A stretch of 26,772 nucleotides of DNA from Dehalococcoidia bacterium (GCA_023271515.1 JALPXQ010000008.1:1-26772), one strand, 5' to 3'. Numbered from the stretch's first letter, positions 1,919 to 18,355 are shown. Notes: generated by a model not told the origin, from the sequence alone. Numbers and translations are program-made.

Positions 1919-2689
1919 ATGGAGTATCGGGAAATAATCCTGCTGAAGCAGGGCGAAATGGCCAGGATCACCATCAACCGACCCCCGGTTAACGTGATGA
2001 CCTTGAACACCATAGCCGAGCTGAACCAGGCACTAGGGGGATTGAGGGAAGATCCCGAGGTCAAGGTGGTGATCATCCGGGGAAGCGGGGAGCGGGCCTT
2101 CTCCGCCGGCGTGGAGGTGGCCGACCATCTGGGCGAGAAGTTACCCTGGATGTTGGAGGAGTTTGGCCGGCTGTTTAAGTCGCTGAGGAATGTAGACAAA
2201 CCGATTGTAGCAGTGGTAAACGGCGTCGCTTTGGGAGGCGGTTGCGAGCTGGTGGCCGGGTGCGATATGGCTATCGCCTCGGACAAAGCTAAATTCGGTC
2301 AGCCGGAGATAAAGTAGGGTGTGAACCCTCCGCCGGCCAGCGTGCTTTTCCCCAAGATCATAGGGATGAAAAAGGCCCTGGAGTTGATCCTCACTGGCGA
2401 TTCCATAGATGCGTGGGAGGCGCAGAGGATAGGTCTGGTGAACAAAGTGGTCCCCCACGAAGAATTGGATCAGGCTGCGGAGGAATTCGCCAACCGACTT
2501 CTGGAGAAAAGCGGATACATACTGAAGTTGAGCCGGGAAGCCTTCTACAAGGTTAGCGAGATAAGCGACTATGAGAAGGCCCTTGACTTTATGAACTGCC
2601 GGTCGCGTAGGATCATGGAATCTGAGGACGCCGTCGAGGGACTGACCTCTTTCATCGAAAAGCGCAAGCCGGTCTGGAAAAACCGGTGA
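1919..2689 (+). pseudogene. Enoyl-CoA hydratase/isomerase (crotonase) family protein, interrupted by an in-frame TAG at 2315-2317 and split into 132 aa and 122 aa ORFs.
   Basis: The N-terminal part has the crotonase fold motifs (INRPPVNVMT, VIIRGSGERAFSAGVEV, VNGVALGGGCELVAGCDMAIA, KFGQPEIK). The C-terminal part continues in the same frame (KALELILTGD...). There is a Shine-Dalgarno site AGGAGGA upstream of ATG 1919. The TAG sits where the conserved Leu of FGQPEI-L-G is expected. Confidence 0.65.
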
Positions 2690-3806
2690 TGGCAAGTATA
2701 ATAGACGAACTGGAGCCCATCATTAATCCCCGAAGCATCGCCGTGATAGGAGCCTCAGATAATCCCGCTAAGCTGGGCTATCACTGCATGAAGAGCCTGA
2801 AAGAGAGCGGGCTTCAGTCCATATATCCCATAAATCCGCGCTCTTCGGAGATTTGGGGATTTCCGGCCTATTCCTCGCTGAGAGAGATAGATCAGGAAAT
2901 CGACCTGGCTATCGTGATTGTGCCGGCCTCTGCGGTTCCTTCAGCAATAGAGGATTGTGCCCGGAAGGGGATAAAAGGCATTGTCCTTATGACTGGTGGA
3001 TTCAGGGAAGCGGAAGATCTGGCGGGCTCCAGGATGAAATAGGTTTGCTGGCAAACAAGAGTAGAATCAGGGTGATCGGTTCCAACGCATTCGGTCCATC
3101 TAAATGCCTCCTTACCCCGGAATTCCTTGCTACTTGAGGGTAAGCCTTATAAGTCAAAGTGGCGAGATATGCCACCCTCCTTGCTGATGGAATCGGAGAA
3201 AGTAATCGGCTTTTCCAAGATCGTGGACCTAGGCAACCGATGCAAATTTTCCCAACATGCTGGAGTACCTGGCGGTGGACCTGGAGACCAGGGTGATCCT
3301 GATGTATCTCGAGGGGATAGATGATGCCCGCAGGCTTATCGAGATTGCTCGGTGAGTGGCGCCCCAAAAGCCCATAGTAGCCTTCAAGTCAGGAAAGATG
3401 ACCACTGCGGACAGAGCGGCTTATTCTCATACCGGTTCCCTGGCGGGAAAGCATAAGGTCTATCTCGCCGCTTTCAGGCAGGCCGGGATCCTGTTGGCAA
3501 GCGATTTCGAGGAATTGCTGGATATCTGACCCGAACGTTGATGCCCTCTTGTTTCTCTCTGCCTATGCCTCAGCCAACGAGCCCGTAATTAGAGCGCTCG
3601 CTGCAGTGCTGAGGGAGGAGATCGAGGCTCGCCGGAAGCCGATCCTCACCTGCTTCCCGACACCACTGCGAATCTGGGAGGAAAGGGTCGAGCTGGAGAA
3701 GAGCGGCATTCCGGTTTATGCTACGCCGGAGAGGGCGGCTAGATCTCTGGCAGGTTTGGTCTGCTACGGAGATATCCCGGCTTTGGCGCTATTCACGAAA
3801 ACTTGA
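2686..3806 (+). pseudogene. ADP-forming acetyl-CoA synthetase (acetate--CoA ligase) alpha subunit, heavily degraded. It has at least 4 to 5 frameshifts, an in-frame TGA at 3353-3355 and an apparent internal deletion of about 250 nt.
   Basis: An N-terminal CoA-binding domain is intact in ORF 2686-3042 (SIAVIGASDNPAKLGY...IVPASAVPSAIEDCARKGIKGIVLMTGGF). Homology then continues across three frames: LQDEIGLLANKSRIRVIGSN, HLNASLP, ISQSGEIC, GIGFSKIVDLGN, LEYLAVDLETRVILMYLEGIDDARRLIEIAR-TGA-VAPQKPIVAFKSGKMTTADRAAYSHTGSLAG. The C-terminal tail is in ORF 3549-3806. Total length is about 1.1 kb against about 1.4 kb expected. Confidence 0.7.
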
Positions 3807-4872
3807 ACCTCCCATATTTTTCCACCATTTTTTGGTCAATGGAAGGTCCCGTCTTGTGGATCACCTCCACTAAGTCTCTCATTTCCACATCCCTTGCAAT
3901 GCCGGTCTGGATATTCTCTCTAAAGGGGATCAGCGAGGCTTTAAGGCAGATCTGCCTTATGTCCGCGCCGCTATGACCCTCGGTCATCTGTGCCAGGTTG
4001 TCGAAATCAATATCCTCTGCCAGCGGCTTTCCCTGGAGATTCAATTCAAAAATCTTTTTCCTCGCCTGAGAATCAGGGAGAGGAACATAGATAGTCTCGT
4101 CAAATCTTCCCGGTCTAAGGGCAGCATGGTCAATGCTCCATGGCTCGTTGGTTGCCCCGATGAAGAGGAGGTTCTCATTTTTCGACTCCATCCCCTCCAT
4201 CTCCGCCAAAATCTGAGGAACAACCCGTTGCATCACCGTAGACCCGGAATCCTTCCTCTTTGGAATCAGTGCTTCAACCTCGTCAATAAAAATCACCGCT
4301 CTCTTCTGATTCCTCGCCGAAGAAAACAGCTTCGCTATATTCTGCTCACTCTCCCCGACCCACTTGCTCATAATTTCGCTCGGCTTTATGCTGAAGAATA
4401 CCGCATCCACTTCATTGGCAACCGCCTTTGCGATGTAAGTCTTGCCTGTGCCAGGGGGACCGTAGAGCAAGATTCCTCCCCCGGATCTGATCCCAAACCT
4501 CTTCGCCTCTTCAGGATATAGAAAAGGATAGATTATCTTGTTCTTGATCTCCTCTTTGATATTCTCCAGTCCTGCCACGTCGTCGAAGGTTACGGCAGGT
4601 CGTTCCTGCAAGATGAATTCTGCACCTTTTCCCCTTCCCGCAGCAGCCTCCTTTTCCTTAAGAGTGATAGACTTTGCCTTCTCCAGGAGTTTCTGGGCGT
4701 TTTCAACCCTTATCAGCTTCACCCTCCCCTGCGATTCGGAAGACGCATTAAAGAGTTGTCTGCTCGCCTGCAGGTAATAGTCTCTGGCTTTTCGCAACTC
4801 GCTTTGCGCTTCCGCCTTCATTGCCTCGGCGATATATTCTTCGGCTTTTTGAAGAAATACGTCAATGCTCAT
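3793..4872 (-). CDS. vps4: MIT-domain AAA+ ATPase, Vps4/CdvC-like (copy 1).
   Basis: It has an N-terminal three-helix MIT-like region. It has Walker A GPPGTGKT, Walker B IFIDEVE, arginine finger RPGRFDE and a Vps4-type C-terminal helix. Its start overlaps the stop of the upstream ESCRT-III-like gene. Confidence 0.85.
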   Translation of the reverse strand: MSIDVFLQKAEEYIAEAMKAEAQSELRKARDYYLQASRQLFNASSESQGRVKLIRVENAQKLLEKAKSITLKEKEAAAGRGKGAEFILQERPAVTFDDVAGLENIKEEIKNKIIYPFLYPEEAKRFGIRSGGGILLYGPPGTGKTYIAKAVANEVDAVFFSIKPSEIMSKWVGESEQNIAKLFSSARNQKRAVIFIDEVEALIPKRKDSGSTVMQRVVPQILAEMEGMESKNENLLFIGATNEPWSIDHAALRPGRFDETIYVPLPDSQARKKIFELNLQGKPLAEDIDFDNLAQMTEGHSGADIRQICLKASLIPFRENIQTGIARDVEMRDLVEVIHKTGPSIDQKMVEKYGRFKFS

Positions 4873-4875: not shown

Positions 4876-5475
4876 CTACCCCTTCCGCATCATGTCCTCG
4901 ACTTCCTTGATGCCCCTGGAAATCCTCTCATCCAGGCCCTTTTCCTCAGTCTCTGCCTCCCCTTCCATTGTTTTTACAATTTCGTTGATGTCTCTATCAG
5001 AGAAACCTTCGGCACTCAAGATACCCTCGCTGGCCATGTCTAAAGTAGTGGACAACGCCTCGTCGATGCCCTCTGCCTGTGCCATCGCCTTCTCAAATTC
5101 CACCTGCATGCCGGCGATCTTTTCTACATCTGGGCCTTCGGTAATGGACTCGCTTATGTCCTTAGCAAAGGTTACAAAATCCCCGGAGATCTTGACCATC
5201 TCCCGTTGAAGTCTGGCCTCGTCCATCAGCAGGAGCATCCGCTGTCCCTTTCTTATCCGTTCCTGCAAGACCAGATATTTGGCAGCCTGCCTCTTCAAAA
5301 ACTTCTCTTCATTTAGTCTAGCCGCCTGCCTTCCCTGATCGTATATCGTCTTTTGCAGGTCCATCAGCTTCGAGATGTAGCCTTTAACCCTTGCTTTCGC
5401 CTTCCTGTACCTTATCTCCCTCTCGATCTCCTTCTCTTCCCTTGATTTTCCCTTCAACTTTTTCAATATGCCCAT
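4876..5475 (-). CDS. ESCRT-III/Snf7-like protein (copy 1). It is an all-helical protein of about 200 aa with a basic N-terminus and an acidic C-terminal tail.
   Basis: The N-terminus is MGILKKLKGKSREEK..., the sequence is predicted coiled coil, and the C-terminus is acidic (EGEAETEEKGLDERISRGIKEVEDMM, MIM-like). It is translationally coupled to the Vps4-like gene. There is a GGAG Shine-Dalgarno site 7 nt upstream of ATG 5475. Confidence 0.6.
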   Translation of the reverse strand: MGILKKLKGKSREEKEIEREIRYRKAKARVKGYISKLMDLQKTIYDQGRQAARLNEEKFLKRQAAKYLVLQERIRKGQRMLLLMDEARLQREMVKISGDFVTFAKDISESITEGPDVEKIAGMQVEFEKAMAQAEGIDEALSTTLDMASEGILSAEGFSDRDINEIVKTMEGEAETEEKGLDERISRGIKEVEDMMRKG

Positions 5476-5561: not shown

Positions 5562-6299
5562 TCAACCTTCAGCCTTCAGCCTATCCACCTGAGTAGCTAG
5601 GATTACAGTTATATTGTCCCTTCCGTCGGTCTCTTTCGCAGAGTTTATGAGCTTCTCGCAGGCTTCATCGAGGTCTTTTGAACTTATTATGATCCGTCTT
5701 ATTTCTTCACCCCGTAAGGAATCTGTCAATCCATCAGAGCACAACAACAGATATTGACCACAAATCCGGATCTCGTAGAGGTCAGGTTTTATATCGGCAT
5801 CCGTTCCCATCACCCTGGTAATGATATTCTTTTCCGGATGATCAAAGGCCTCCTCTTCTGAGATAATACCTCTATCCACCAGTTCTTGAACGAAGGAATG
5901 GTCCTTGGTCTGCTGCTTTATCTCCTCTCCTATCAGATAAGCCCTGCTGTCGCCTATATTTGCGATCACACATCTTTCTTCTTCAATCAAGGCAGCCACC
6001 AGCGTTGTGCCCATATTACTATAGTCTGGATTTTCCCGGGCTAAACTGTATATCTCCCTATTTGTCTTCTCAAAAGCCTGCTGAAGCAGCATCCTGAAGT
6101 CAGTAATCCCCTCGCTAAATCCTTTGTTCACCGCCTCTTCCAGCTCTATCACTGCCAGCCCACTGGCAATCTCGCCGGCGCTGTGCCCGCCCAGACCGTT
6201 GGCAACGGCAAGGAGGTAAATGTCGCCGAAGCGCGTTACCGCAAGGCTATCCTCGTTATTTGCTCTCTTCCCGCTGTCAGTAAGAGATGCTATCTTCAT
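5562..6299 (-). CDS. PP2C-family (PPM) Ser/Thr protein phosphatase.
   Basis: AVANGLGGHSAGEIAS, GTTLVAALI, ANIGDSRAY and LLCSDGLTD are the conserved PPM metal-binding motifs. Its start overlaps the kinase stop by 4 nt. Confidence 0.9.
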   Translation of the reverse strand: MKIASLTDSGKRANNEDSLAVTRFGDIYLLAVANGLGGHSAGEIASGLAVIELEEAVNKGFSEGITDFRMLLQQAFEKTNREIYSLARENPDYSNMGTTLVAALIEEERCVIANIGDSRAYLIGEEIKQQTKDHSFVQELVDRGIISEEEAFDHPEKNIITRVMGTDADIKPDLYEIRICGQYLLLCSDGLTDSLRGEEIRRIIISSKDLDEACEKLINSAKETDGRDNITVILATQVDRLKAEG

Positions 6300-8548
6300 C
6301 CTTCTGTCCTCGCTTTGCGGATAATTCTATCCATATCGTTTAATCTACGGGGTTCTAATGTTGGATCACGATGCTTAATGCAATGATTAAGGACACCGAT
6401 TTGCTGGTCGATCAAATCCTGTGTCTCACTGGATTTCACCTGGGTTTTTAAGGAATTCAGGTAATCGATACATTTGTTCAGCGCACTCAAGCGCGTCTCA
6501 CGATGTTCCGAGCTGCTATATGCCTGTCGTAAGAGCATATCCGACATCTCGCAATAGAGCGTTATTCTCTCCAGTCGTTCTATGGTTATCTTCACCTTTT
6601 GTTTGTGTTCTATTTCCAGAACGTCTGCCAAGTGATTATGGAGCTCTTCTATGCTCTGGTAGCGCCTCTCCTTTTCCTTCTCCAGACAGCGCATGATTAC
6701 AGGTTCGACGAATTTAGCTTCCTGGTTAATGCTTGAGGGTAAGGGAGGATCGTGCTTCTTTATTTTCTCCATTATGGCAGATTCATCGGCGGCTTCAAAG
6801 GGAGGCTTGCCGGTTACCAGCTCATAGAATATCTGACCGAGCTGGAATATGTCGGTTCTTCCATCTACCTTCCCTCCGCTTATCTGCTCCGGCGTGGCAT
6901 AGAGGGTAGTGTATCCTCTGGCTTGATCATCTGACTGCTTTGAAGCCCGTATCATCTTTGCCAGCCCCCAATCCACGATTTTCGGCTCCTTATTACCATC
7001 AAGCATGATATTGCCAGGCTTCAGGTCGAGGTGAAATACAGGTCGCGGTCTTCCATGAGCATATCTTAAGCCATCTGCTATCTTGAAGATCAGATGACCC
7101 GCTTTTCTCGGATCAAGCGGTATCAAATCCTCAATCGAGCCAGCCAGAAGCTCCATCTCGATATATGGCCTGGGATAAGAGCTATAGTCGTATATCGTGG
7201 CTATGTTCTTGTGATCGAGTTCCTTCCAGATTTGTATTTCGTCTATAAAGCTCTTGGCGGTCTTTTTATCATGGTACCTGGCGATCTTTATGGCCACCAT
7301 GGCACTGTCCTTCTTCCGCTGTGCGCGGTACACCCAGGAACTTCCACCCTCGCCGACGTATTTAGGTTGATGATAGTATTCATGGAGCTCCTCCGGAAAG
7401 GCGAACATCGGTTGGCCTTTTCTTATGCCAGGTCCAACTGCGGGTTCCAATGTTATATCCTCAACCTTTATTGGCTTTCGTACCTCGTCGCCTTTTGCGA
7501 CAGCGCTCCTTGCGCGGACCAGAGTATCGGTGCACAACCTTATATTTGCTGTGCAGGCATCAGTTGACTTTTCGATCCTTGTCTTTTCCTCTTCCAGACC
7601 GTGTTCGGCAGCAAGCTCACGAATGCCGTCGAAGTGTGTCTGAGCATTCCTGTATTGGTCTCTTGCTTTGAGGTATTCTCCCTTGTTGAACCACTTCTCG
7701 GCATCCTCGATTAGCCCGTTCCCGATTTCAATCTTTCCCTCCACCAAGCCTCTGTATGCCGTTGTTTTCAATTGGTTGTAGGTTGCGTTATCCGAGGAGA
7801 ACGATTCCAGGTACTTTATCACTTCTGAGAAGGCATTCTCCTTTTCCTTGCCTTTTTCCTTATTGGCCTGCTCGATTAACTTATCTCCCTTGTGCAGGAG
7901 GCATGCCTCGATGCTAACCTCCATGTTTGCTACTGCTCGATTGATCGTTGGCTCGTCCTCAAACCCGAATTTGCCTGCAACCCCAGCGCCTTTTGCATAC
8001 GTCTCTCTCGCTGACCGGAATCCTTCTCTGGCAGCATCGAAATCTCCTGCCTCAAACATTCTTTTCGCCTCGTTCACGGTCTTGTTTGCCTCATCAACGA
8101 GTGCAGCCATCTCTTTCCGGGCTCTGTTTACCGCAGCAGTCTTTATATCTTTCTCGATGCTTCCCATAGAGGGTTTAAGAGCCTCAACTATCTCCCCCTC
8201 GTTCCTTTCGCTCGCCAACTGCACCACACGGGTGTATTCTTCGAGAGCCCTTTCCCAGAGCGTTATGGCTTCTGAGTAATCTTCTCTCTGGTATGCCTCG
8301 CTGCCATCGTCGGCTATCTTTTTCGCTCTATCCAGAAGATATTCGGTAGTGGGTCTAGCGGCCAGTTGGGCCTTCTTGGTCAGCTCCAGCGCTCTTGCGA
8401 ACTCCTTCTTCTTCACCGATTCCGCCGCTTCCTTGAGGAGGCTCCTTGCCTCATCCAGGTTGGCGCCTATATGGTGCTGATTTATCAGACCTCTAGCAAC
8501 CTCCACTTCCTTGTGCAGCCCTTCGAGTTCTTTCACAATACTGCCCAT
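6296..8548 (-). CDS. Hanks-type Ser/Thr protein kinase with an N-terminal helical-repeat region of about 380 aa and a C-terminal tail of about 100 aa.
   Basis: The kinase domain spans about 6600-7400. Motifs are GEGGSSWVY, VAIK, HLDLKPGNIM, DWGLAK (a DFG variant) and YATPEQ. The start is ATG 8548 or TTG 8551, with GGAGG 8 nt upstream. Confidence 0.9.
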   Translation of the reverse strand: MGSIVKELEGLHKEVEVARGLINQHHIGANLDEARSLLKEAAESVKKKEFARALELTKKAQLAARPTTEYLLDRAKKIADDGSEAYQREDYSEAITLWERALEEYTRVVQLASERNEGEIVEALKPSMGSIEKDIKTAAVNRARKEMAALVDEANKTVNEAKRMFEAGDFDAAREGFRSARETYAKGAGVAGKFGFEDEPTINRAVANMEVSIEACLLHKGDKLIEQANKEKGKEKENAFSEVIKYLESFSSDNATYNQLKTTAYRGLVEGKIEIGNGLIEDAEKWFNKGEYLKARDQYRNAQTHFDGIRELAAEHGLEEEKTRIEKSTDACTANIRLCTDTLVRARSAVAKGDEVRKPIKVEDITLEPAVGPGIRKGQPMFAFPEELHEYYHQPKYVGEGGSSWVYRAQRKKDSAMVAIKIARYHDKKTAKSFIDEIQIWKELDHKNIATIYDYSSYPRPYIEMELLAGSIEDLIPLDPRKAGHLIFKIADGLRYAHGRPRPVFHLDLKPGNIMLDGNKEPKIVDWGLAKMIRASKQSDDQARGYTTLYATPEQISGGKVDGRTDIFQLGQIFYELVTGKPPFEAADESAIMEKIKKHDPPLPSSINQEAKFVEPVIMRCLEKEKERRYQSIEELHNHLADVLEIEHKQKVKITIERLERITLYCEMSDMLLRQAYSSSEHRETRLSALNKCIDYLNSLKTQVKSSETQDLIDQQIGVLNHCIKHRDPTLEPRRLNDMDRIIRKARTEG

Positions 8549-8553
8549 CAATT

Positions 8554-9735
8554 CTACCTCCTGCCTTGATTTACAACCTCATCTATCATCTCAAGAATCG
8601 CTCTCTTTTTCCTTTCAATCTCCTCCCTCTCGGCCTTCTTCTTTCGCCCGTAGGAAAAAATGCCTATTGACAGGATCACGGCAAAAGCAAGTGTCCCCAC
8701 GTAGATGTGATTGTTATTGATCGTCGGTGCAAAGTCTCTATAGTTGACCACGCCGTCTTGATCCAGGTCCATGGCAAGAGACTTTGCCCTTGTTGCCATC
8801 TCAAATGCCGTTTTATAATCTGCATCCTCAAATGCCTCCTCACTACCTGAAAGCAAAGCCTCGGCCATGGCTACATTGAATCCTCGTAGCTCTGCTACTC
8901 TAATTGCCTCCCTTGCCTGGTCGATCCCTTCAATGGCCAGTTCACCGTCTCTTTTAATCGTTTCTGCCGTAGTCTTTGCCTGCTCAGCAAGGGTTTTGGC
9001 GCGTCCAAAATGCCCTCCTGCAAGCGCCCTCTCGGCCTGCCGAAGAAGACCCTCAGCCTCTGTCATATCGAGCCCTTCGGCTCTCCCCCTTTGAATCGCT
9101 TTGGCGATCTCTTCAATGATAGCGGCAATTAGTGCTTCTTCCGATTCAACCTTTATCAGCCAGAGATCACTCTCACCTGCGCCAAAAGACATTGTCCAAC
9201 CGGTTACGATAAATCCGCCGTCATCGGTCTGCTGGACTGAGAGGCCCGAATCACTTTTTGCGCCACCGAATGTGCGGCTCCACTCCTTATTCCCCGCAGA
9301 ATCGGTCTTTATCAGCCAGAGATCCGACTCACCTGCGCCGAAAGACCCTGTCGTTCCGGTTACGATAAACCCGCCGTCAACCGTCTGCTGGACTGAGCAG
9401 CCCCAATCCCTGGCTGTGCCACCGAACGTGCGGCTCCACTGCTTATTACCCGCAGGATCGGTCTTTATCAGCCAGAGATCCGACTCACCTGCGCCAAAAG
9501 AGCGTGTCCAACCGGTTATGATAAATCCGCCGTCAGTTGTCTGCTGGACTGAGAGGCCCCGATCAGATTCTGCGCCACCAAATGTGCGGCTCCACTCCTT
9601 TGCCGGCGCTCGCTCTGTGGTCTCGTCAGCCACGGCCACGCCTACGAGAGGGAAAGGGAACGCCGTTACCAGCGCGGCAACCATAAGCACCACTGCCACC
9701 CCAAACAGGATTGGTGTCAGACTTTTCATGATCAA
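8554..9735 (-). CDS. Type-I membrane surface protein. It has a signal peptide, 3 tandem blade-like repeats of about 47 aa, a helical repeat, a DxDGVVN motif, a C-terminal TM helix and a conserved basic cytoplasmic tail.
   Basis: There is an N-terminal hydrophobic signal. There are three copies of [42 protein letters not shown]. The C-terminus is [55 protein letters not shown]. Confidence 0.75.
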
Positions 9736-9769
9736 AACCTCCCTGAAGATTCTTAGCGCCTCCCCCTAC

Positions 9770-10012
9770 TCATTTCCCCATTTCCCTCTCAATCCCTCTC
9801 TCCCAAATGTGCTTTGCCTCTTCAATGCTTTCATCACTGATTTTAACACTCTTCCAGATTCCTCGAAGAGAGATCACCTCCCCCTCTGGTGGAGTTTTCT
9901 GGGGCTCCCCATGAAGGATTTGCATTCTTACTCGCTCGTTCTCTCTTAAGCCAACTTTGTCCAGAAGTTTGATCACCCCTTTTTGATAGATGCCCTCTAT
10001 GACCTCGGCCAT
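9770..10012 (-). CDS. Small DUF104-like protein (archaeal antitoxin-like), orphan.
   Basis: The N-terminus MAEVIEGIYQKGVIKLLDKVGLRENERVRMQI resembles archaeal DUF104 antitoxin-type proteins. There is a GGAGGT Shine-Dalgarno site 7 nt upstream of the ATG. There is no PIN or other toxin partner adjacent. Confidence 0.45.
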   Translation of the reverse strand: MAEVIEGIYQKGVIKLLDKVGLRENERVRMQILHGEPQKTPPEGEVISLRGIWKSVKISDESIEEAKHIWERGIEREMGK

Positions 10013-10042
10013 TTTCGTTACCTCCGCTAGTTTTTGCCCACA

Positions 10043-11653
10043 CTACCCCCTGCCCTCATTTACAACCTCATCTATCATCTCAAGAATCGCTCTCTCTTTC
10101 CTTTCAATCTCCTCCTTCTCGGCCTTCTTCCGTCGGCGGCGAAAAGAAACGCCTGCTGATGCAGAGATAAGGCCCAGGACAAGAAGAAATGCTCCCATGT
10201 AGATATGATTGTTGTTGATCGTCGGTGCAAAGTCTTCATGGTTGACCACGCCGTCCCGATCCACATCTAAGGCAAGCGATTTTGCGGTTGCGGCCAGTTC
10301 TACCGCTCTTTCATACTCTCTATCATCAAATGCGCTCTCAGCCTGAGAAAGCGAGCTTTCGGCCTCCACAACATCGAAACCTTTTGCCCTTTCCTGAGAG
10401 ATTACCTGCCTTGCTTCTTCGATAGAGCTTCTTGCCAGTCTCAGTTCTCTGGTAATTTCTTCCGCTTTTGCCTTTGCCTGCCGGGCAAGGCTTATGGCTC
10501 CTCCAAAATCCCCTCCTGCAAGTGTCTCCTCAGCCTGCGAAAGTACACCCTCCGCCTCGGTCATATCGAGTCGTTTGTCTATCCCCTCCTCGATTGCATC
10601 CCTGGCCTGGTTGATCGCATCAAGCGCTGCCTGAGCTTCCCCTTTTACCTCTCGTGCGGTAACCTCTGCCTGCTGGGCAAGGCTCATGGCTTCTCCATAA
10701 TCCCCTCCTGCAAGCGCCCTCTCGGCCTGCCGCAGGAGATCCTCAGCCTCAGCCATATCGAGCCCTTCGGCTCTGCCTGTTGTTATTGCCTCCTTTGCTT
10801 GCTCGATCTGCTCCAGTGCCGCTGCCCTTCTAATCCCTTCTACCTTAGCCTCTGCCTGCTGGGCAAGGCTTATGGCTTGTTCAAAATCCCCTCCTGCAAG
10901 TGCCCGCTCGGCCTGCCGAAGGAGACGCTCGGCGTCTGTCATATCAAGCCCTTCGGCTGTTCTGGCTTCGATTACTTCTCTTGCTTTGTCGATCTCTTCA
11001 ATCGCTGCTTCAGCATCCTCTTTAATGCCTTCTGCTTTAGTCTTTGCCTGCTCAGCAAGGCTTACGGCTCTTTCAAAATCGTCTGCTGCAAGCGCCCTCT
11101 CGGCCTGCCGGAGGATATCCTCAGCTTCAGCCATGTTGAGCCCTTCGGCTCTCCCGGCTTCGATTGCCTCCCTTGCCTGGGCGATGGCATTGATGGCAAA
11201 TTGAGGCATGGGGATTTCAACAAGGTTATGGTGGATGATCTGCGCGGCATGCTGGACTATTATCCGCGGCCGCACCCTATCGGCGAGGATAGAAACCTCG
11301 CCCGGGACTTGAATAAGGTTATGGTGGATGATCTGCGCGGCATGCTGGATTATAATGCGGGGCATCACCTCACCTGCGAGGCTCACCAGGGTCTCCGCAG
11401 GCTCCACAAGGTCAAATTCTTGCACGCTGTCGGCGTCTTCCACGACAATCTCAGGGCCGCTTGCGGCATGCACCCTGGAATTTACCGCCAGATATGCCGA
11501 TACGGCCAGCACCAACGCGGCCAGAATCAAGACCATCAGGGGGATTCTCCCCCTGAAACCCCCTGAAGAGCGGTCATCCTTAGGATTTTTAAAGGAGCTT
11601 CGCTCCTTTATTCTCCAGGGCGGTTTACACTGGTTTATCCTTATCCTGAACAA
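10043..11653 (-). CDS. Type-I membrane surface protein, paralog of 8554-9735. It has a signal anchor, a 2x 31-aa tandem repeat and 5 helical repeats of about 37 aa. It ends with a DxDGVVN motif, a TM helix and the conserved tail.
   Basis: The C-terminus [72 protein letters not shown] is nearly identical to the upstream paralog at the DNA level. It contains repeats of the form [32 protein letters not shown]. The true start may be the internal Met near 11536 (MVLILAALVLAVSAYLA). Confidence 0.7.
   Translation of the reverse strand: MFRIRINQCKPPWRIKERSSFKNPKDDRSSGGFRGRIPLMVLILAALVLAVSAYLAVNSRVHAASGPEIVVEDADSVQEFDLVEPAETLVSLAGEVMPRIIIQHAAQIIHHNLIQVPGEVSILADRVRPRIIVQHAAQIIHHNLVEIPMPQFAINAIAQAREAIEAGRAEGLNMAEAEDILRQAERALAADDFERAVSLAEQAKTKAEGIKEDAEAAIEEIDKAREVIEARTAEGLDMTDAERLLRQAERALAGGDFEQAISLAQQAEAKVEGIRRAAALEQIEQAKEAITTGRAEGLDMAEAEDLLRQAERALAGGDYGEAMSLAQQAEVTAREVKGEAQAALDAINQARDAIEEGIDKRLDMTEAEGVLSQAEETLAGGDFGGAISLARQAKAKAEEITRELRLARSSIEEARQVISQERAKGFDVVEAESSLSQAESAFDDREYERAVELAATAKSLALDVDRDGVVNHEDFAPTINNNHIYMGAFLLVLGLISASAGVSFRRRRKKAEKEEIERKERAILEMIDEVVNEGRG
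11222..11407. repeat. 93-bp tandem direct repeat (2 copies) within surface protein gene 10043-11653.
   Basis: aaggttatggtggatgatctgcgcggcatgctgga occurs at 11222 and 11315. It encodes the duplicated 31-aa segment PRIIIQHAAQIIHHNL. Confidence 0.8.
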
Positions 11654-11814
11654 AGGTTCACCTCCCGTCGCGAGCGCATGCCCGAGATGGCAATCATGCC
11701 TTGTCCATCAGTCTAAAGGGTGGAGCAAAGACCAGGTTCATCCCTCTCGGTAGACAAGGACGATAGCAAATGATCCTGCCCACACCCTCGCGATTTGGTG
11801 GAACACATCTGGCC

Positions 11815-12513
11815 TTAGCTGAGCCGGTGAGAGTGTTCCATGTGAGTCTGCTCCCGCAACTCGCTCTCCATCAATATTAAGGGGGGGGGGTCGGTCATGA
11901 ACGACCTCTCAAAGACGGTTAAGGCCCCGGGTATCTTGAGGTTAAAGCTGTCATGGTCAACAATGATCATCATCCTATCAGCATCGGGGTGTCTGAAGTC
12001 GTAGTGTTTTACCTCGGCAATACCCACTCCAGCAGCCGTGGTTACCTGCATCAGTACTCTCTCCAGCCTTGTGCTGCCCAAATCCCCCAGGTCAATTATC
12101 CTGGCTACCGGATGCTCGCGGCCATAAAAGGCCACTATCCAACCATTCCGGTGGAGAAAGACATGTGCATCCCACTCTTCGTCGTGCCCAGGCACTCCGA
12201 CTGAGCCGATAATGTATTCATCCGTCTCGCGCTCTATCGTTCTGAATGCCCCCCTTGCCCTCACCAGATCAATCTCCCGGCCCACATTGGTAAAGGCCGA
12301 GATTCCCGCCTGCTCCTCAAGGAAATTGGCCCCCGCTGTTCCGGCGGCAAACGCCGGCCGCGCCAGGGTGATCAGTCCGGATATTCCGGCCGCCGCGCGG
12401 GGAGTCTCGCCGCCCCCCGCCCCGGAACCCGGTGGGATAAAGACCGGAACCGCGGCAACGATCACCGCCAGGACTACCAAAGCCCCACCAATCCTCCAGA
12501 TATGCTTCCTCAT
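11815..12513 (-). CDS. Secreted or membrane-anchored protein of unknown function, with an N-terminal TM or signal sequence.
   Basis: It is a 232 aa ORF with a hydrophobic N-terminus (GGALVVLAVIVAAVPVFI). It contains a G10 homopolymer at 11881-11890 that encodes PPP near the C-terminus. Confidence 0.5.
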   Translation of the reverse strand: MRKHIWRIGGALVVLAVIVAAVPVFIPPGSGAGGGETPRAAAGISGLITLARPAFAAGTAGANFLEEQAGISAFTNVGREIDLVRARGAFRTIERETDEYIIGSVGVPGHDEEWDAHVFLHRNGWIVAFYGREHPVARIIDLGDLGSTRLERVLMQVTTAAGVGIAEVKHYDFRHPDADRMMIIVDHDSFNLKIPGALTVFERSFMTDPPPLILMESELREQTHMEHSHRLS

Positions 12514-12595
12514 GGTTTACCTCCCTAAAATAGAGATTTTGCTTGGTCTGATCAGACATGCTTTTACACGATGCCCCTCCTCGTATCCATCGCCG

Positions 12596-15500
12596 TCAGG
12601 CAGCTCGTCTTTTTATGAGTAAGACGATCAGTCCTAGCGCTGCAATTCCGGCTGCGATCCACGGGTTCGCCTGAACAAGCTGAATAAGCTGAGCAAGTAG
12701 TCTTTCACCAATGCGAAGTAGTCTTTCGCCAATATCAAGTAGTCTTTCACCAATGTCTGGTGCCTGGGGCAAGACCACCTCGACTATTGTTGAGAAACTA
12801 TTTATCACCCCATCGTTATCTGCTATCGTCAGTGTTACCATATAGTCTCCAGCAACTGAAAAGCTATGCTCGATTACCCTACCAGTTCCAGTGGTTCCAT
12901 CCCCAAAGTCCCATTCATAGGATATTATCTCGCCATCAGGGTCAGACGAACCAGACGCATCGAAGGTGATGGGCTGATCTACAATCATCTCCTCCGGGGA
13001 GTATGCAAAAGATGCGATTGGTTGTTGAAGCATTCTCTGTTCCTCAAATACCCCGTCGCCATCAGCATCCGTCTTCATGGTAACCCCTGCCTGGACGGGA
13101 ACTTCTGTATCAATAACAAATCGGTGTGTTGTAGTCTCTGTCGTGGGGACATCAGTAATAGCAAAACTCTCAATTTGTCCTTCCACGCTAGAAATCGTTG
13201 TTAATCGATATGTTGCCTCCTCTATACCTGCAACCTCTAAGTAATAGATGCCAGTTGGAGCAAATATAGTAACAATCTTATTTTCCGTATCATACATTGA
13301 ATATGGAATTTCTTCTTTTACTACTCCATCTACTAAACCAGTAACTCGTCCCTGAGAATCGTAAACCCGTAACTCTCCAGGACTGGCAAATGCTACAACT
13401 CTGAGGTCAGCAGGCAATATATTCAGAAATTCTCTTCTGATAAAATGTGCTGCGATATTCTTGTGAGAATCCATCCTGATAGTGGTAACGGGTGCATGTA
13501 CATCTGCAATAGTCCCAACATCTCCTTTCCAACCAACAAACTTCCAACCTGGAGCAGGATATGCCCTAATTTCTACTTGTTTTAGTTCTCCTCTAGGAAA
13601 AATAGTATCTCCAGGTTTATTAACTGTCCCCTCGCCAATAATATCCATTGAAAGTGTTACATCTTCGGAAATGAAGGTAACCAATGCAAACCCTATTATT
13701 GGATTCCCCCTCCAAAAATCTTGATATACACCTATTCCAAGACTTACAAGAGTATTTCCTGCAGCTCTAATAAGATTAATAGGAGCAAGGAGACGGTCTA
13801 TAACCCACCCTTTACCATACTCCCTAACTGTATCAGATTTTGCAATATCAAGTAAAAGTGGTGGTAAAGAATTAAGTACGACTTCACGCCCTTCAGGACA
13901 GAATACAATAGTTCTAGGAGTTAACACAAGCTGCCCCATCTGTAATAATGTTCTAGATTGAATATATTCTACAACTTCTTTTAAATGCTCATGATCCTCA
14001 AATTCTATATAAAGTTGTAATGCAAACTTAGGTTCAGCCGGAACTCCAAATACTCCTAATGCTGCTGATAATAATTCCATTGCTATTGCAACGTGCACTA
14101 TCGCCATTTCAACTTCCAATATATCTCCAGGTAGAAGAGTATTAAGCTTCACCGTGTATGTTACGCTTCCCTTAGGAGGGACTAGTCTAAAATAATTACC
14201 AAAACTTTCTTTCTGAAGATGTTCCATAAAGCCATCTATACTTTCTAAAGTTACATCTTCCCTAATAAACCGAGGTTTAAATTCAACCCACATATCTAAA
14301 GAGTTGTGTACAGTTAGCTCAACAATGCGCTTCTCCTCATCGACATATATAGGAGCAGATCCCCTTATACGCCAATCATCACCGCTAATTTTAAAAAACG
14401 CTGTTTTATATGGTAGTGCCGGCGGGGTGACTTCTAGTGCCTCGGTGAAGGTCCTTGAAGCCAGGTGCCGATCCCCAGCATCTATCCTGCCGTTGTTGTT
14501 GACATCCTCCACCAGAGAGACGAGCAGGTTATACCTGCCTGGGGGTGCATCTGTCGGCATTACAAACGAACGCTGGACGGTGCTGGAACCTGAAACGATG
14601 GCGACCTGGCGATCATTGGCCGGATCGCTCAGAGGCGATCTCCCGGGCAACTGGATGCTGGCCCCCAACAGAACCGTCCTTGTGGGCCCTGGATTTGCCA
14701 CGTTGTATGTAATGGTGATCGTCTCTCCGGCCGCAGCGGTGCTGGGTGACGGGTGAGCAGATGTGATTGTTGGGTCTGGTGGTGGCGCCGGCGGGGTGAC
14801 TTGTAGTGCCCCGGTGAAGGTCCTTGAAGCCAGGTGCCGATCCCCGGCATCTATCCTGCCGTTGTTGTTGACATCCTCCACCAGAGAGACGAGCAGGTTA
14901 TACCTGCCTGGGGGTGCATCTGTCGGCATTACAAACGAACGCTGGACGGTGCTGGAACCTGAAACGATGGCGACCTGGCGATCATTGGCCGGATCGCTCA
15001 GAGGCGATCTCCCGGGCAACTGGATGCTGGCCCCCAACAGAACCGTCCTTGTGGGCCCTGGATTTGCCACGTTGTATGCAATGGTGATCGTCTCTCCGGC
15101 CGTAGCCGTGCTGGGTGACGGGTGAGCAGATGTGATTGTTGGGGCTGGTGGTGGTGCCGCCAGTAGACGAAGCCTGCTGGGCGTGGAGCTGCCAATGTTG
15201 TTATTCTCATTCGATTCGGTGACTTGTTTAAAGCCATCAACAAAGACTGTCACATAGTAATCCCCCGGGGCAGGAACTGCTGATGGGATGGCGTTAGTGG
15301 TGATAGTGAGCGTTCTAGAGGCACCAGGACCGAGCGAGGCTACAGGGAAATTGCCCAAACCGTGGCGAGTTCCCCATCGACGGGTGGATAGAGAAACACG
15401 GAGGTGGAATGAGCCCGAGGCGGCATCACCCCGGTTTTTCACTGTAAAAGCAACCGAAATTTCATCGCCGTGAGCTACCTCAGCAGGGTCGAAGGTGACG

Positions 15501-15631
15501 CGGGTCGTCACAGTAAGATCAGGGAGTCCAGCGCTGGCTATCGCGGTGGGTACTGTCAAAGCGCTCGCGCTGAACAGCAGCAGGGTGGTCATAAGGATGG
15601 CGAAAATGCTGAGAGTAGTTCTCTTTTGCAT
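12596..15631 (-). CDS. Large surface adhesin-like protein of 1011 aa. It has a signal peptide, a CARDB-like domain, 2 identical Ig-like repeats of 123 aa, a central domain of unknown function, a PKD domain and a C-terminal TM anchor preceded by 3x IGERLL.
   Basis: The N-terminal signal is followed by a CARDB-like segment (PDLTVTTRVTFDPAEVAHGDEISVAFTVKNRGDAASG). The PKD motif is ITFDASGSSDPDGEIISYEWDFGDGTTGTG...GDYMVTLTIADNDG. The C-terminus is PWIAAGIAALGLIVLLIKRRAA. There is an AGGAGG Shine-Dalgarno site upstream of ATG 15631. Confidence 0.8.
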   Translation of the reverse strand: MQKRTTLSIFAILMTTLLLFSASALTVPTAIASAGLPDLTVTTRVTFDPAEVAHGDEISVAFTVKNRGDAASGSFHLRVSLSTRRWGTRHGLGNFPVASLGPGASRTLTITTNAIPSAVPAPGDYYVTVFVDGFKQVTESNENNNIGSSTPSRLRLLAAPPPAPTITSAHPSPSTATAGETITIAYNVANPGPTRTVLLGASIQLPGRSPLSDPANDRQVAIVSGSSTVQRSFVMPTDAPPGRYNLLVSLVEDVNNNGRIDAGDRHLASRTFTGALQVTPPAPPPDPTITSAHPSPSTAAAGETITITYNVANPGPTRTVLLGASIQLPGRSPLSDPANDRQVAIVSGSSTVQRSFVMPTDAPPGRYNLLVSLVEDVNNNGRIDAGDRHLASRTFTEALEVTPPALPYKTAFFKISGDDWRIRGSAPIYVDEEKRIVELTVHNSLDMWVEFKPRFIREDVTLESIDGFMEHLQKESFGNYFRLVPPKGSVTYTVKLNTLLPGDILEVEMAIVHVAIAMELLSAALGVFGVPAEPKFALQLYIEFEDHEHLKEVVEYIQSRTLLQMGQLVLTPRTIVFCPEGREVVLNSLPPLLLDIAKSDTVREYGKGWVIDRLLAPINLIRAAGNTLVSLGIGVYQDFWRGNPIIGFALVTFISEDVTLSMDIIGEGTVNKPGDTIFPRGELKQVEIRAYPAPGWKFVGWKGDVGTIADVHAPVTTIRMDSHKNIAAHFIRREFLNILPADLRVVAFASPGELRVYDSQGRVTGLVDGVVKEEIPYSMYDTENKIVTIFAPTGIYYLEVAGIEEATYRLTTISSVEGQIESFAITDVPTTETTTHRFVIDTEVPVQAGVTMKTDADGDGVFEEQRMLQQPIASFAYSPEEMIVDQPITFDASGSSDPDGEIISYEWDFGDGTTGTGRVIEHSFSVAGDYMVTLTIADNDGVINSFSTIVEVVLPQAPDIGERLLDIGERLLRIGERLLAQLIQLVQANPWIAAGIAALGLIVLLIKRRAA
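14400..15137. repeat. Perfect tandem duplication, 2 copies of 369 bp differing by a few SNPs, inside adhesin gene 12596-15631.
   Basis: The block starting near 14421 (ggcggggtgacttctagtgcc...) recurs at 14790. The two ORF-track antisense ORFs 14304-14756 and 14763-15125 are near-identical. The duplication encodes a duplicated Ig-like module of 123 aa. Confidence 0.9.
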
Positions 15632-15752: not shown

Positions 15753-17009
15753 TCAGCCTACCTTATATTCCCTGGCAGCCTCTATCAACTCCCTGAACAT
15801 CTCACCCTCTCCCGTTCCGCTTAATTCTTTGACTGCTTTTGGATACCAAGAAGCAAGCACAGTCTTCTTCCCTTTCAACACCTGGTCGAAGTCTTCCATC
15901 GTTATCTCTCTCCTGGGGGTCATCTCTTTGATCCTCTCCCCCAGGGGAATCATTGCCGCCTTCTCACAGATATCTGCGATCTCAGCGCTGGCATATCCCT
16001 CGGTGATCTCTGCCAGTCTCTGCAGACTGACTGATCTGGAGACAGGCTTATTCTTCAGATTTATCTCCAGGATTTTTTTGCGAGCCTCAATATCGGGATG
16101 GGGGAGGAAAACCGTTGTATCGAACCTCCCTGACCTTCTCAAAGCAACATCAACAGCCCAGGGGCGATTGGTAGCTGCAAGAACAAGATAGCGTTTAGTT
16201 GTGCCTTTCGCTTCCAGACCATCCATCTGTGATAACAGCTCGCTTACCAGGCTTCTCTCGTGCCCCTCCATTGACCCGGAGCGCTCCCCTGCCAGGGAGT
16301 CGAACTCATCGAAGAATAACATTGCCTTTTCATAGCTTCTGGCAACGTTGAAGATTTCCTTGATGTTTTTCTCGCTTTCTCCTACGTATTTGTCCTTGAT
16401 ATCGCTGCCTTTTAGACTGACGAAGGCTGCATCGGATTCGGCCGCCGCCGCCGCCGCGAGCATCGTTTTTCCGCATCCCGGAGGACCGTATAAGAGAATC
16501 CCCCCACCCGGTTTAACCCCAAAGTACTCGTACTCCTCCGGGTACTTGAAGGGATAAACAATTGCCTCCTTGATGTTCTCCTTTACTCTGGCTAAACCGG
16601 CGATATCGCTGAATCTTATCTTCGGTTTTTCCGCCAGGATCAGACCTTTAACCCTCTCCCCTGTCTTTTCTTTCTCTATCCTCCCCCCGGGTGTCTTTTT
16701 AACCCCTTCCTCCGGTGGTATCATGCCATCCGTATATACTTTAACAGTCCCTTCTTTGAGCCCCTCGGCGATCTCCCTGAATTTCTTGGATCTGTCCAGC
16801 AGCTCTTTTCGCTTATCCCTCGGTGACATATCTGCAAGATGCTCCAGGAATTTAGCGCACTTTAAGTACTCCACACTGGCTTTCGCCATGCTGCCTTCAT
16901 CATAGTGCCTCCTGGCCAGATTAAGGGATTTCTTATACTCGGCTTGGACCGCATCTCTCAGCTCCATACTTATTCCCTCCATAGTCGGGTTATCGGGTTC
17001 AGGGTTCAC
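15753..17009 (-). CDS. vps4: MIT-domain AAA+ ATPase, Vps4/CdvC-like (copy 2). The likely true start is ATG 16967 (MELRD...).
   Basis: It has an MIT-like N-terminus. It has Walker A GPPGCGKT, Walker B LFFDEFD, RSGRFDT and a Vps4-like C-terminus. The ORF-track start 17009 is GTG. An internal ATG at 16967 is preceded by GGAGGGA with a 6 nt spacer. Confidence 0.85.
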   Translation of the reverse strand: MNPEPDNPTMEGISMELRDAVQAEYKKSLNLARRHYDEGSMAKASVEYLKCAKFLEHLADMSPRDKRKELLDRSKKFREIAEGLKEGTVKVYTDGMIPPEEGVKKTPGGRIEKEKTGERVKGLILAEKPKIRFSDIAGLARVKENIKEAIVYPFKYPEEYEYFGVKPGGGILLYGPPGCGKTMLAAAAAAESDAAFVSLKGSDIKDKYVGESEKNIKEIFNVARSYEKAMLFFDEFDSLAGERSGSMEGHERSLVSELLSQMDGLEAKGTTKRYLVLAATNRPWAVDVALRRSGRFDTTVFLPHPDIEARKKILEINLKNKPVSRSVSLQRLAEITEGYASAEIADICEKAAMIPLGERIKEMTPRREITMEDFDQVLKGKKTVLASWYPKAVKELSGTGEGEMFRELIEAAREYKVG

Positions 17010-17106
17010 GGGTCACGGTTGATGGTTCACGGTTCATGGTTATTTGTCTAACCGTTCAATCTTGATCGCTCTAACCTTGAACCGTGAACCCCGGCAACTT
17101 TGAATC
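16987..17106. repeat. GGTTCA-rich inverted-repeat intergenic element (copy B), in the 5' region of the Vps4-like copy 2 gene.
   Basis: The sequence is gggttatcgggttcagggttcacgggtcacggttgatggttcacggttcatgg...taaccgttcaatcttgatcg...cttgaaccgtgaacc. The arms GGTTCACGGTTCA and TGAACCGTGAACC form a dyad. Confidence 0.7.
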
Positions 17107-17113
17107 TAAGCAG

Positions 17114-17743
17114 CTACAGCGTCTCTAACTCTTCTTCCTCCCTCTCTCTGGCAACTCTCTCTTTTAGCAGCCTCTCAGCTATCTGCTCAGCTTCGGCTTC
17201 ATTTGCCGTTTCCAAGACGTCCATGTATCTCTTTATCTCTTCGTCCTCCTTGGGTTTGGCAAGTAAGCCCAATTCTCCATCTAACATCTCAAGTAAGTTG
17301 TCCACATTCCCTTTCGCTATCTCATTCTGCAGGTTCACTTGTGCCAGAAACTTTTCCAGCTTACTCGCCGGTAGTTTGGTCAGCTTGGTCATTATGCCCT
17401 TATGTGCCAGCAACTCTTGGCTCTCCTGGGTGAAAACCAGATTGTCCACTACTCGAAGTTGGTCGTTGATGTTCTTCAGATACTTGTCGTCGAGTGCCAT
17501 CTCGCGCTCCAAACGCAGCATCTGCCTTGCAGTGCTCCTTTTCTTCGCCTCGCTGCTTTCTCCCGAGCCTTGTTTTATTAGCGCCCTGAACTGCTGAGAC
17601 GCCTTGTCAACCTTTGCTATCCTCAGCTTCTCTTCCCTTTCCAGCCTGATCCTTTCGGCTATCAGGTCATCCTTCTTCAGCTTCTCGAAGGGGTTTCCCT
17701 TTATTTTGTCCAGAATTCCCATTGTGTTTGCCTCCTTTTTCAT
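17114..17743 (-). CDS. ESCRT-III/Snf7-like protein (copy 2). The likely true start is ATG 17722 (MGILDKIKG...).
   Basis: An internal start MGILDKIKG mirrors MGILKKLKG of copy 1 and has an AAGGAGG Shine-Dalgarno site 8 nt upstream. It is all helical with an acidic C-terminus (AREREEEELETL). It lies directly upstream of Vps4-like copy 2. Confidence 0.6.
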   Translation of the reverse strand: MKKEANTMGILDKIKGNPFEKLKKDDLIAERIRLEREEKLRIAKVDKASQQFRALIKQGSGESSEAKKRSTARQMLRLEREMALDDKYLKNINDQLRVVDNLVFTQESQELLAHKGIMTKLTKLPASKLEKFLAQVNLQNEIAKGNVDNLLEMLDGELGLLAKPKEDEEIKRYMDVLETANEAEAEQIAERLLKERVAREREEEELETL

Positions 17744-17771
17744 TTGAGCCAGTTTGTCTTTGCTGTTTGTA

Positions 17772-17879: not shown

Positions 17880-17925
17880 TTTGCTGCCTACATTTCATTC
17901 TTTCCTGTGACTTCTCACCTCCTTT

Positions 17926-17997: not shown

Positions 17998-18002
17998 AGT
18001 AC

Positions 18003-18295: not shown

Positions 18296-18355
18296 AATTA
18301 CCTCCTACTACCCTCATTTCATCTCCACCTGGTATGTAAGGATTCCCCAAAATTC

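Follow-up and report, generated by a model that had tools for sequence, protein, structure and literature searches.

A conserved membrane-anchor and tail cassette in proteins encoded beside a Ser/Thr kinase and ESCRT-like genes in a Dehalococcoidia contig

The window considered here is the whole of a 26,772-nucleotide (nt) stretch from a Dehalococcoidia bacterium (GCA_023271515.1 JALPXQ010000008.1:1-26772). Two of its genes, A and B, encode membrane proteins that end in the same cassette. This is a portable module of four pieces: an extracellular acidic DxDxDG loop with the motif that follows it, a transmembrane (TM) helix, a basic stop-transfer cluster and an amphipathic tail helix of about 30 residues. 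The cassette is real and previously unannotated, no Pfam or NCBIfam model covers it, and its role is plausible and directly testable. The tail is probably a cytoplasmic docking element that ties membrane proteins to a cluster of kinase, PP2C and ESCRT-like genes. A more specific proposal, to which we would give slightly less than an even chance, is that the tail resembles an MIT-interacting motif (MIM) and acts as a docking helix, assembling a split receptor kinase tied to the ESCRT-like module.

The mosaic 3' ends of genes A and B

The two genes and the parts of their cassettes are located as follows.

8554-9735, minus strand: gene A, 393 residues, from the open reading frame (ORF) list; from N- to C-terminus a hydrophobic anchor or signal, three beta-blade repeats (9151-9618), two DUF4398-like helical units and the cassette
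8701-8769, minus strand: extracellular juxtamembrane block of A, resembling a TSP3 / EF-hand DxDxDG loop
8647-8700, minus strand: TM helix of A, hydropathy peak at residues 342-363
8557-8646, minus strand: cytoplasmic tail of A, 30 residues, matched by a hidden Markov model (HMM) of the tail with E 9e-11
8557-8562, minus strand: AGGAGG, the last two tail codons of A (Arg-Arg) and a Shine-Dalgarno sequence for the kinase start at 8551/8548
10043-11653, minus strand: gene B, 536 residues, from the ORF list; from N- to C-terminus an anchor, a 93-nt tandem repeat (11211-11381), five DUF4398-like helical units and the cassette
10199-10267, minus strand: juxtamembrane block of B, placed by sequence alignment with A
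10142-10198, minus strand: TM helix of B, MGAFLLVLGLISASAGVSF, placed by alignment and hydropathy
10046-10141, minus strand: cytoplasmic tail of B, 32 residues, matched by the tail HMM with E 7e-10

An earlier note on this DNA described the last 150 nt or so of the two genes as almost identical. Alignment of 8554-8800 with 10043-10300 gives a mean column identity of 89%, a repeat search recovers the pairs 8554-8670/10043-10159 and 8672-8884/10170-10382, and the peptide motifs quoted in the note are correct. The description holds for the tail and the juxtamembrane block but not for the TM helix between them, which has diverged, and homology extends further than stated, to about 200 residues: in BLASTP the last 204 residues are 55% identical (E 1e-50). 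The repeat is therefore real but mosaic. No third copy of the cassette was found in the window with tblastn.

Comparison of A and B codon by codon, segment by segment, defines the mosaic. The cytoplasmic tails share 93% nucleotide identity and 25 of 29 codons are identical. Each of the four differing codons changes the amino acid, and no difference is synonymous only. Nucleotide identity is 87% in the DxDG..NNNHIY block and falls to 60% in the TM helix (37% at the amino acid level, with a five-codon indel), so that the segment previously thought to be conserved is in fact the least conserved part. The helical-repeat region upstream displays 63% nucleotide identity, and there 23 of 63 conserved residues are specified by different codons as against 0 of 25 in the tail, a comparison that excludes chance as the source of the tail identity. 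Nor are the ectodomains unrelated, one of beta-blades and the other helical, as had been supposed, since A also carries two helical units of the B type after its three blades.

Several details of the ectodomains are noted. Gene A probably starts at the ATG at 9729. Its blades have a repeat unit of 156 nt (n = 3 in the repeat search) and give a weak match to SBBP-type beta-propellers. The Pfam matches of gene B are DUF4398 (3e-15) and, exactly at the cut-off, NRBF2_MIT. The 93-nt tandem duplication of B (11211-11381, 83% identity) encodes RIIIQHAAQIIHHNL(I/V).(V/I)P just past the N-terminal anchor. The ectodomain of A is plastic among close relatives, with three beta-blade repeats in the window (8554-9735), six in locus L004 (8780-10234) and seven in locus L055 (4766-8544), and one to three helical units. 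In L055, a 98%-identical relative, gene B is broken by a stop codon into ORFs of 396 and 173 residues.

Hydropathy assigns to A and B alike an N-terminal hydrophobic segment and a single C-terminal TM helix. The 15 residues following that helix carry a net charge of +5 in A and +3 in B, and the 15 preceding it -1 or -2. By the positive-inside rule the tail is predicted to be cytoplasmic, in agreement with the earlier note, and naturally occurring cassette-kinase fusions, described below, fit the same topology. Ser, Thr and Tyr are absent from both tails, so the tail itself is not a phospho-acceptor.

An AlphaFold2 (AF2) model of residues 244-393 of A was calculated from an alignment of 18 sequences (predicted local distance difference test, pLDDT, 84). 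The TM segment and tail form one uninterrupted helix (pLDDT 77-84). The model also contains a confident three-helix repeat, with the DxDxDG block as a low-confidence loop (pLDDT 53-56). The repeat matches DUF4398 and generic helical bundles, not MIT domains. We also considered whether the tail might derive from the ectodomain helical repeat, as its first helix truncated ahead of the KGFDV loop. The similarity is marginal against the repeats of A (9 of 500 and 22 of 500 shuffles reach the score) and not significant against those of B, and we treat it as a weak lead only.

A widespread module and the concerted evolution of its tails

A profile of 77 positions was searched exhaustively against 1.84 billion cluster representatives and matched 123 protein clusters at E<=1e-3, 34 of them at E<=1e-10. 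Word-index searches were far less sensitive, the first returning one protein and the second four, the tiny P0125-P0128, which consist of a TM helix and tail. Nearly all cassette matches lie at the C-terminus, below unrelated ectodomains that include PQQ/BamB-like and PD40/TolB-like propellers and NosD beta-helices. The conserved core consists of the last DUF4398-like repeat, the sequence A(K)sLAlDIDqDGVxNexDFAPtI(N/K)NxYIY, the TM helix and the basic cluster; the juxtamembrane block is its most conserved part. Of 124 family proteins, 108 match a regular expression for the loop, which is within 110 residues of the C-terminus in 93. The suggestion of a strongly selected anchor-and-tail cassette is thus upheld on a much wider scale, and the module that is defined, in more than 100 protein clusters, had no annotation.

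What follows the basic cluster varies. In the window and its relatives the protein ends with a tail helix of consensus ..IE+EKAEIIxMIDEaL. The classes are:

Type 1, that of the window: ..IEkEKAEIIdMIDEaL, including a ..MKQEILDKIEEV variant; 36 proteins
Type 2: ..EQWKrEGYDVSELEEMLK; at least 17 proteins
Type 3: IYVFDKETGEL; 4 proteins
Kinase-fusion class: Ser/Thr kinase domain joined directly to the cassette; 4 proteins (P0003, P0073, P0089 and P0093)
Long helical class: longer cytoplasmic helical regions; several proteins

All carriers of the type-1 tail but one (35 of 36) have only 0-17 residues beyond it, the exception being the kinase fusion P0003. It also terminates proteins that have no DxDxDG loop: polytopic proteins of 163 residues in locus L006 and 170 residues in L007, an 84-residue protein with two TM helices in L008, and a partial ORF in L014. 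P0126 (60 residues), P0127 and P0128 are scarcely more than a TM helix and this tail. The type-1 tail is an independent, portable and strictly C-terminal unit.

Type-3 tails may belong to another system; in the one context that was read (L013) there are no kinase or ESCRT-like genes. The type-2 motif ends many cassette proteins, mostly from hydrothermal-sediment metagenomes, shares loci with type-1 tails, and occurs as well in a cytoplasmic loop of a polytopic protein. It is located at 9779-9955 in L016, at 10255-11367, 11564-13525 and 13610-15190 in L017, and in L019-L054.

Two known kinds of sequence invite comparison with the cassette. The PEP-CTERM and PGF-CTERM signals similarly combine a conserved short motif, a C-terminal TM helix and a basic cluster with many unrelated ectodomains. 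However, in those proteins only a few residues follow the TM helix and the signal is removed by exosortase or archaeosortase, whereas here a conserved tail of 30-32 residues follows. The NCBIfam CTERM models give no match to cassette proteins at E<=0.1, and no exosortase or archaeosortase is present among the 20 window proteins scanned against Pfam. On these grounds an archaeosortase-type sorting signal was rejected. The second likeness is to the Ca2+-binding loops of TSP3, EF-hand and dockerin sequences, which share the acidic ladder D-x-D-x-D-G-x-x-N-x-x-D-F-x-P (DVDRDGVVNHED in gene B and likewise in gene A). The weakest profile matches are indeed TSP3-like OmpA-family and EF-hand proteins (P0080, P0117, P0100 and P0107). 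Here though the ladder is in single copy and leads into an invariant (T)INNxYIY and the membrane. The Pfam models TSP_3, EF-hand and Dockerin find nothing in A or B at E<=0.01, and the only weak Dockerin_1 match is in a neighbouring protein of 1011 residues.

The paralogous tails evolve in concert within populations, as the earlier note had anticipated in proposing gene conversion. Over a 24-codon core of the tail A and B differ at 4 of 72 nt, none of the changes synonymous, and A differs from its orthologues (L001-L003) at 5-8 of 72, with 2-3 synonymous. Over the 40 codons upstream of the loop A and B differ at 45 of 120 nt, B being the outlier, and A and its L002 counterpart at 14 of 120. 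In L055 the tails of A and B are separated by one nucleotide in about 85, and the Q/E site of A is GAG, as in B-type genes. The A-type (L001) and B-type (L015) genes of the BBPD01 assembly have in common derived K-S-E and ILAMI states, which occur in neither paralogue of the window or of L055. The tandem paralogues of L008 are approximately 45% identical in nucleotide sequence in the ectodomain as against about 90% in TM helix and tail. That paralogues are closer to each other within a population than to their orthologues points to gene conversion on top of purifying selection, and offers a clear example in which a functional interface stays uniform while sensor domains diversify. In L001 itself an A-type body is followed by a tail end and a downstream flank of the B type, which may be a real crossover or, since the contig contains Ns, an assembly join at the repeat.

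The kinase pairing and the proposed role of the tail

Genes A and B belong to a minus-strand operon in the order B, a small DUF104 gene, A, Ser/Thr kinase, PP2C, a coiled-coil protein of 199 residues and an AAA ATPase.

9770-10012, minus strand: small AF2212-like (DUF104) gene between B and A, Pfam PF01954 9e-10
6296-8551, minus strand: Ser/Thr kinase, 751 residues, starting 2 nt past the stop of A, Pkinase 8e-43
7481-8551, minus strand: kinase N-terminal 357 residues, an array of MIT-like three-helix bundles
6632-7375, minus strand: kinase catalytic domain
5562-6299, minus strand: PP2C-type protein phosphatase, overlapping the kinase stop codon, Pfam PP2C_2 4e-16
4876-5475, minus strand: ESCRT-III (Snf7)-like coiled-coil protein, 199 residues, with a full-length, sub-threshold Snf7 match
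3793-4872, minus strand: Vps4-like AAA ATPase, Pfam AAA 1e-43 and AAA_lid_3, with an MIT-like N-terminus (4666-4854)

The description of the adjoining genes as ESCRT-like is partly supported, with ESCRT-III- and Vps4-like candidates, whose Snf7 and MIT matches are sub-threshold, in a type of locus known from the literature. The Snf7 alignment of the 199-residue protein has E 0.14 in the window and 5.4e-5 for the L006 orthologue, both below the cut-off of 27.3 bits, and a sequence search of the PDB gave no match to this protein. The N-terminus of the AAA ATPase matches Pfam MIT at 4e-4 with 20.8 bits (cut-off 30) and its orthologues give weak Vps4_C matches; the best PDB sequence matches are the D2 domains of CDC48/p97.

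The DUF104 gene is an accessory indel and lies outside the system. In L055 the spacer from B to A is only 55 nt, lacks this gene, and has ends that match the flanks of the insertion in the window. The gene is of antitoxin type, and in the related loci L003 and L004 toxin-antitoxin-like genes of other kinds (HicB-like, DUF433/PIN-like) are found in places that vary.

This gene set recurs around distant members of the cassette family. Five such loci provided, with the window, the HMMs used for scoring. Their gene content beside the cassette is:

L006: Ser/Thr kinase, 199-residue protein, AAA (weak Vps4_C)
L007: kinase
L008: Ser/Thr kinase, 200-residue protein, AAA, two tandem cassette genes, receptor kinase, PP2C
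L011: two cassette-kinase fusions
L014: kinase, PP2C, AAA, two Snf7-like genes

A metagenome scan added 40 loci. Of the independent cassette loci that span 4 kb or more (n = 23), 16 have a Ser/Thr kinase, AAA or Snf7-like gene and 12 of the 23 a Ser/Thr kinase. Every locus with a type-1 tail that was examined has a Ser/Thr kinase and/or Vps4-like AAA and Snf7-like genes.

The tightest of these associations is with the kinase. Orthologues of the window kinase share the helical N-terminus of about 360 residues and the gene directly upstream always ends in a type-1 tail. The pair is found in five independent lineages. In the window group it comprises gene A with its 2-nt gap and the close relatives L002, L004 and L055; elsewhere the two genes overlap by 11 nt (L007), are separated by 9 nt (L014) or abut directly (L047), and in L006 the 163-residue tail protein precedes, by about 93 nt, a kinase gene at the contig end. 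The type-2-tail genes of L049 and L054 are placed just upstream of kinase genes and overlap them, and a membrane-anchored kinase of L017 carries a type-2-like motif in cis, directly after the TM helix. In P0003 (locus L003) the tail is fused in frame to a kinase domain; in P0073, P0089 and both L011 genes loop and TM helix are fused to a kinase. We caution that L003 may be decaying or mis-assembled, since its fusion (433-2115) is without the helical N-terminus of about 370 residues and the C-terminal helical region of the kinase is a separate downstream ORF (2143-2325).

What could the kinase offer a tail? The AF2 model of its N-terminus has its best structural matches among MIT domains, with a three-helix bundle that superposes on solved examples. 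The best 60 structure matches hold 12 MIT-type chains, including calpain-7 tandem MIT with IST1, MITD1, Vps4 MIT (two entries), ULK3 MIT and katanin, together with Vta1, spartin-IST1, spastin, Atg1 tMIT and NRBF2. Designed three-helix bundles and TPR proteins score just as highly. MIT domains read C-terminal helical tails (PMC9477494), and ULK3 is a kinase that binds ESCRT-III through its MIT domains and then phosphorylates it (PMC4475061). Compared with the MIT domains of human ULK3 and the tandem MIT of Atg1, the bundles here are N-terminal and form an array of about 357 residues, the candidate ligand is on membrane proteins rather than ESCRT-III subunits, and the host is prokaryotic. A BLASTP similarity between 'FEDEPTIN' in the kinase N-terminus and 'HEDFAPTIN' of the cassette raised the possibility of a degenerate, TM-less cassette in the kinase; this was rejected because the kinase orthologues from L007 and L014 do not share the motif.

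On the basis of these considerations the following mechanism can be proposed. The cassette would tag the membrane proteins of a cluster comprising Ser/Thr kinase, PP2C, ESCRT-III-like protein and Vps4-like ATPase. The C-terminal tail helix would be read by the MIT-like bundles of the kinase encoded immediately downstream, and A and B would serve as alternative, interchangeable sensor and anchor subunits of one split receptor kinase. Kinase and phosphatase would together control the ESCRT-III/Vps4-like membrane-remodelling pair. Gene conversion and purifying selection would keep both tails alike because both must fit one reader, whereas drift would affect the ectodomains and extend even to the TM helix. 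Physical binding of the tail to the MIT-like bundles, the direction of signalling and Ca2+ binding by the loop are all putative elements of this scheme.

Receptor Ser/Thr kinases with a single chain provide a natural comparison. The genes P0003, P0073, P0089 and those of L011 have that layout on the same cassette, and the tail corresponds in position to the juxtamembrane segment. In the window the chain is split by the TAG stop at 8554-8556 and a change of frame before the kinase start, the kinase has a large helical N-terminus of its own, and there are two sensor genes for one kinase.

The tail has one feature of a MIM, being a short segment, helical in the AF2 model, at the extreme C-terminus. 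Several observations weigh against the docking proposal. The MIM1 consensus is (D/E)xxLxxRLxxL(K/R), and by inspection neither the window tail nor the consensus of the family, IEkEKAEIIdMIDEaL, fits it in any register. No match to the C-termini of the ESCRT-III-like proteins is obtained with the tail HMM. For the kinase N-terminus Pfam MIT (PF04212) gives only E 0.073 and 13.6 bits (cut-off 30), and the AF2 alignment comprised just four sequences. Seven of the 23 cassette loci carry no partner gene within the sequence covered. One kinase of L006 has a HEAT N-terminus and one of L008 an FGE-sulfatase N-terminus, though L006 also encodes the MIT-like kinase. Finally, the AAA gene of L006, L008, L016 and L017 has cassette genes immediately after it, which makes the MIT-like domain of the ATPase an equally well placed reader.

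This last point bears on the sorting or cargo signal suggested in the earlier note. In such a scheme the ESCRT-like machinery itself would read the tail as a recruitment signal, either through the Vps4-like ATPase with its MIT-like domain or through the Snf7-like protein, and the membrane proteins would be sorted into vesicles or would nucleate ESCRT-III in the manner of CdvA. The gene order at those four loci, the MIT match of the AAA N-terminus and the full-length Snf7 match are in its favour, the tiny TM-plus-tail proteins look like pure membrane adaptors, and the literature proposes cargo action for such loci. Yet it is the kinase gene that pairs most regularly with the tail, fusions found in nature involve kinase domains and never AAA or Snf7-like proteins, and the tail is unlike the conserved C-termini of Snf7-like proteins, which are the expected MIT ligands. 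We regard this alternative as unlikely. A sorting signal is not the best-supported reading, the tightest conserved link being that to the downstream kinase gene with its N-terminus modelled as MIT-like. As for CdvA of Sulfolobus, a short C-terminal segment of this membrane-associated protein recruits ESCRT-III by adding a strand to the winged-helix domain of CdvB. The position of the segment is the same, but the window tail is helical in the AF2 model and no winged helix is seen in the 199-residue protein.

Alternatively, the tail may continue the TM helix as a coiled coil or 'signalling helix' that drives homo- or hetero-oligomerization with no separate reader. The single AF2 helix through TM segment and tail, the heptad-like a/d spacing of hydrophobic residues (I-x6-I-x2-M-I-x2-V-V) and the presence of several tail proteins per locus (two in the window, three in L008 and two each in L006 and L007) would suit such a function. 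Only about 2.5 heptads are hydrophobic however, the TM helix to be extended is poorly conserved between A and B, and self-association needs neither a strictly C-terminal position nor fixed adjacency to a kinase gene. We judge it unlikely.

A broader idea, which we consider improbable, treats the tail as a prokaryotic cargo or adaptor code, whereby an ESCRT-III/Vps4 machine with MIT-like readers on both kinase and ATPase would select membrane proteins for phospho-regulated budding or remodelling in Dehalococcoidia that have acquired an archaeal-type ESCRT. If true, this would represent cargo-selective ESCRT sorting outside eukaryotes and Asgard archaea.

Least probable by far is that the tail has no function of its own and its identity is a by-product of recent duplication or gene conversion with nucleotide constraints such as the Shine-Dalgarno sequence: the zero synonymous differences and shared polymorphisms do signify homogenization at the DNA level, and the kinase gene takes its AGGAGG ribosome-binding site from the end of the A coding sequence, its last two codons (an overlap seen also in L002, L004 and L055), but that site accounts for 6 of 90 nt, a diverged TM helix between two conserved blocks is unexplained by a single conversion tract, and conservation of the protein motif across 36 clusters, with tail identity down to 23-50% and on unrelated membrane scaffolds, largely refutes the idea.

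Taken as a whole the earlier interpretation is partly supported; the cassette, gene conversion and the topology stand, a conserved TM helix and unrelated ectodomains do not. Prokaryotic ESCRT-like loci with kinases and phosphatases are already catalogued; a portable tail helix and an MIT-like kinase N-terminus turn the question of their cargo or input, and of how membrane proteins connect to them, into a test of peptide-domain binding.

Makarova et al. 2024 (PMC11188069) describe archaeal Vps4/ESCRT-III loci with Ser/Thr kinase (STK) and phosphatase (STP) genes (the 'Main' clade) and others with SPFH/Zn-ribbon genes ('Meth_adaptin'), and arCOG09748 and arCOG08177 are signature partner proteins of the archaeal systems. 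The window has the same gene content, with an MIT-like AAA, Snf7-like, STK and PP2C set in one operon and, in a second module, AAA, Snf7-like, Zn-ribbon-SPFH and Ig-domain STK genes. Text searches of the article turned up neither a conserved C-terminal tail nor a DxDxDG-TM cassette on co-encoded membrane proteins. The close relatives of the window are labelled Dehalococcoidia and in this respect the host differs from the archaeal ones reported there. The article states that ESCRT components are not identifiable in bacteria, and a bacterial assignment, if it holds, contrasts with this. Two of the cassette-bearing genome records are labelled Dehalococcoidia (one a metagenome-assembled genome, the other AH-958-E22, to judge by its name probably a single-cell genome) and a third Bacillota. 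Assembled genomes with names such as GPS1Bxx come from The Cedars serpentinizing springs, a site with Dehalococcoidia. A 98%-identical relative of the window kinase is named at NCBI serine/threonine protein kinase, partial [Dehalococcoidia bacterium], and the L004 contig also carries a bacterial-type Mfd. An archaeal-type ESCRT/STK system is thereby placed in genomes labelled bacterial.

Other features of the window

The region 15753-26732 contains the second ESCRT-like module, which resembles in content the archaeal 'Meth_adaptin' and 'Main' loci of Makarova et al. 2024. Its genes are:

15753-17009: AAA ATPase
17114-17743: protein of Snf7-like size, 209 residues
18356-19978: transglutaminase-core and CDC48_N protein
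20234-22048: Zn-ribbon-SPFH protein
22137-23297: double Zn-ribbon protein
25086-26732: second Ser/Thr kinase, with helical repeat and Ig/CARDB-like region

An intergenic element of 84 nt (GGTTCACGGTTCATGG...TTGAACCGTGAACC) flanks the gene of the 209-residue protein and occurs three times, at 17024-17107, 17788-17871 and 17914-17997, the copies matching a reference copy at 64-79% identity. Either a regulatory repeat or a small mobile element is conceivable.

An in-frame TAG (2315-2317) splits an enoyl-CoA hydratase gene (1919-2689, plus strand) into two ORFs with Pfam ECH_1 matches to 4-127 and 138-250. It falls in the conserved stretch FGQPEIK*GV and could be a nonsense mutation, the mark of a pseudogene or a sequencing error.

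The CARDB/PKD surface protein of 1011 residues (12596-15631) is encoded by a gene with an internal 300-nt direct repeat of 98% identity (14411-14710 and 14780-15079). The protein ends with a triple repeat of GERLL(D/R)I, followed by a plain TM anchor and a short RRAA tail.

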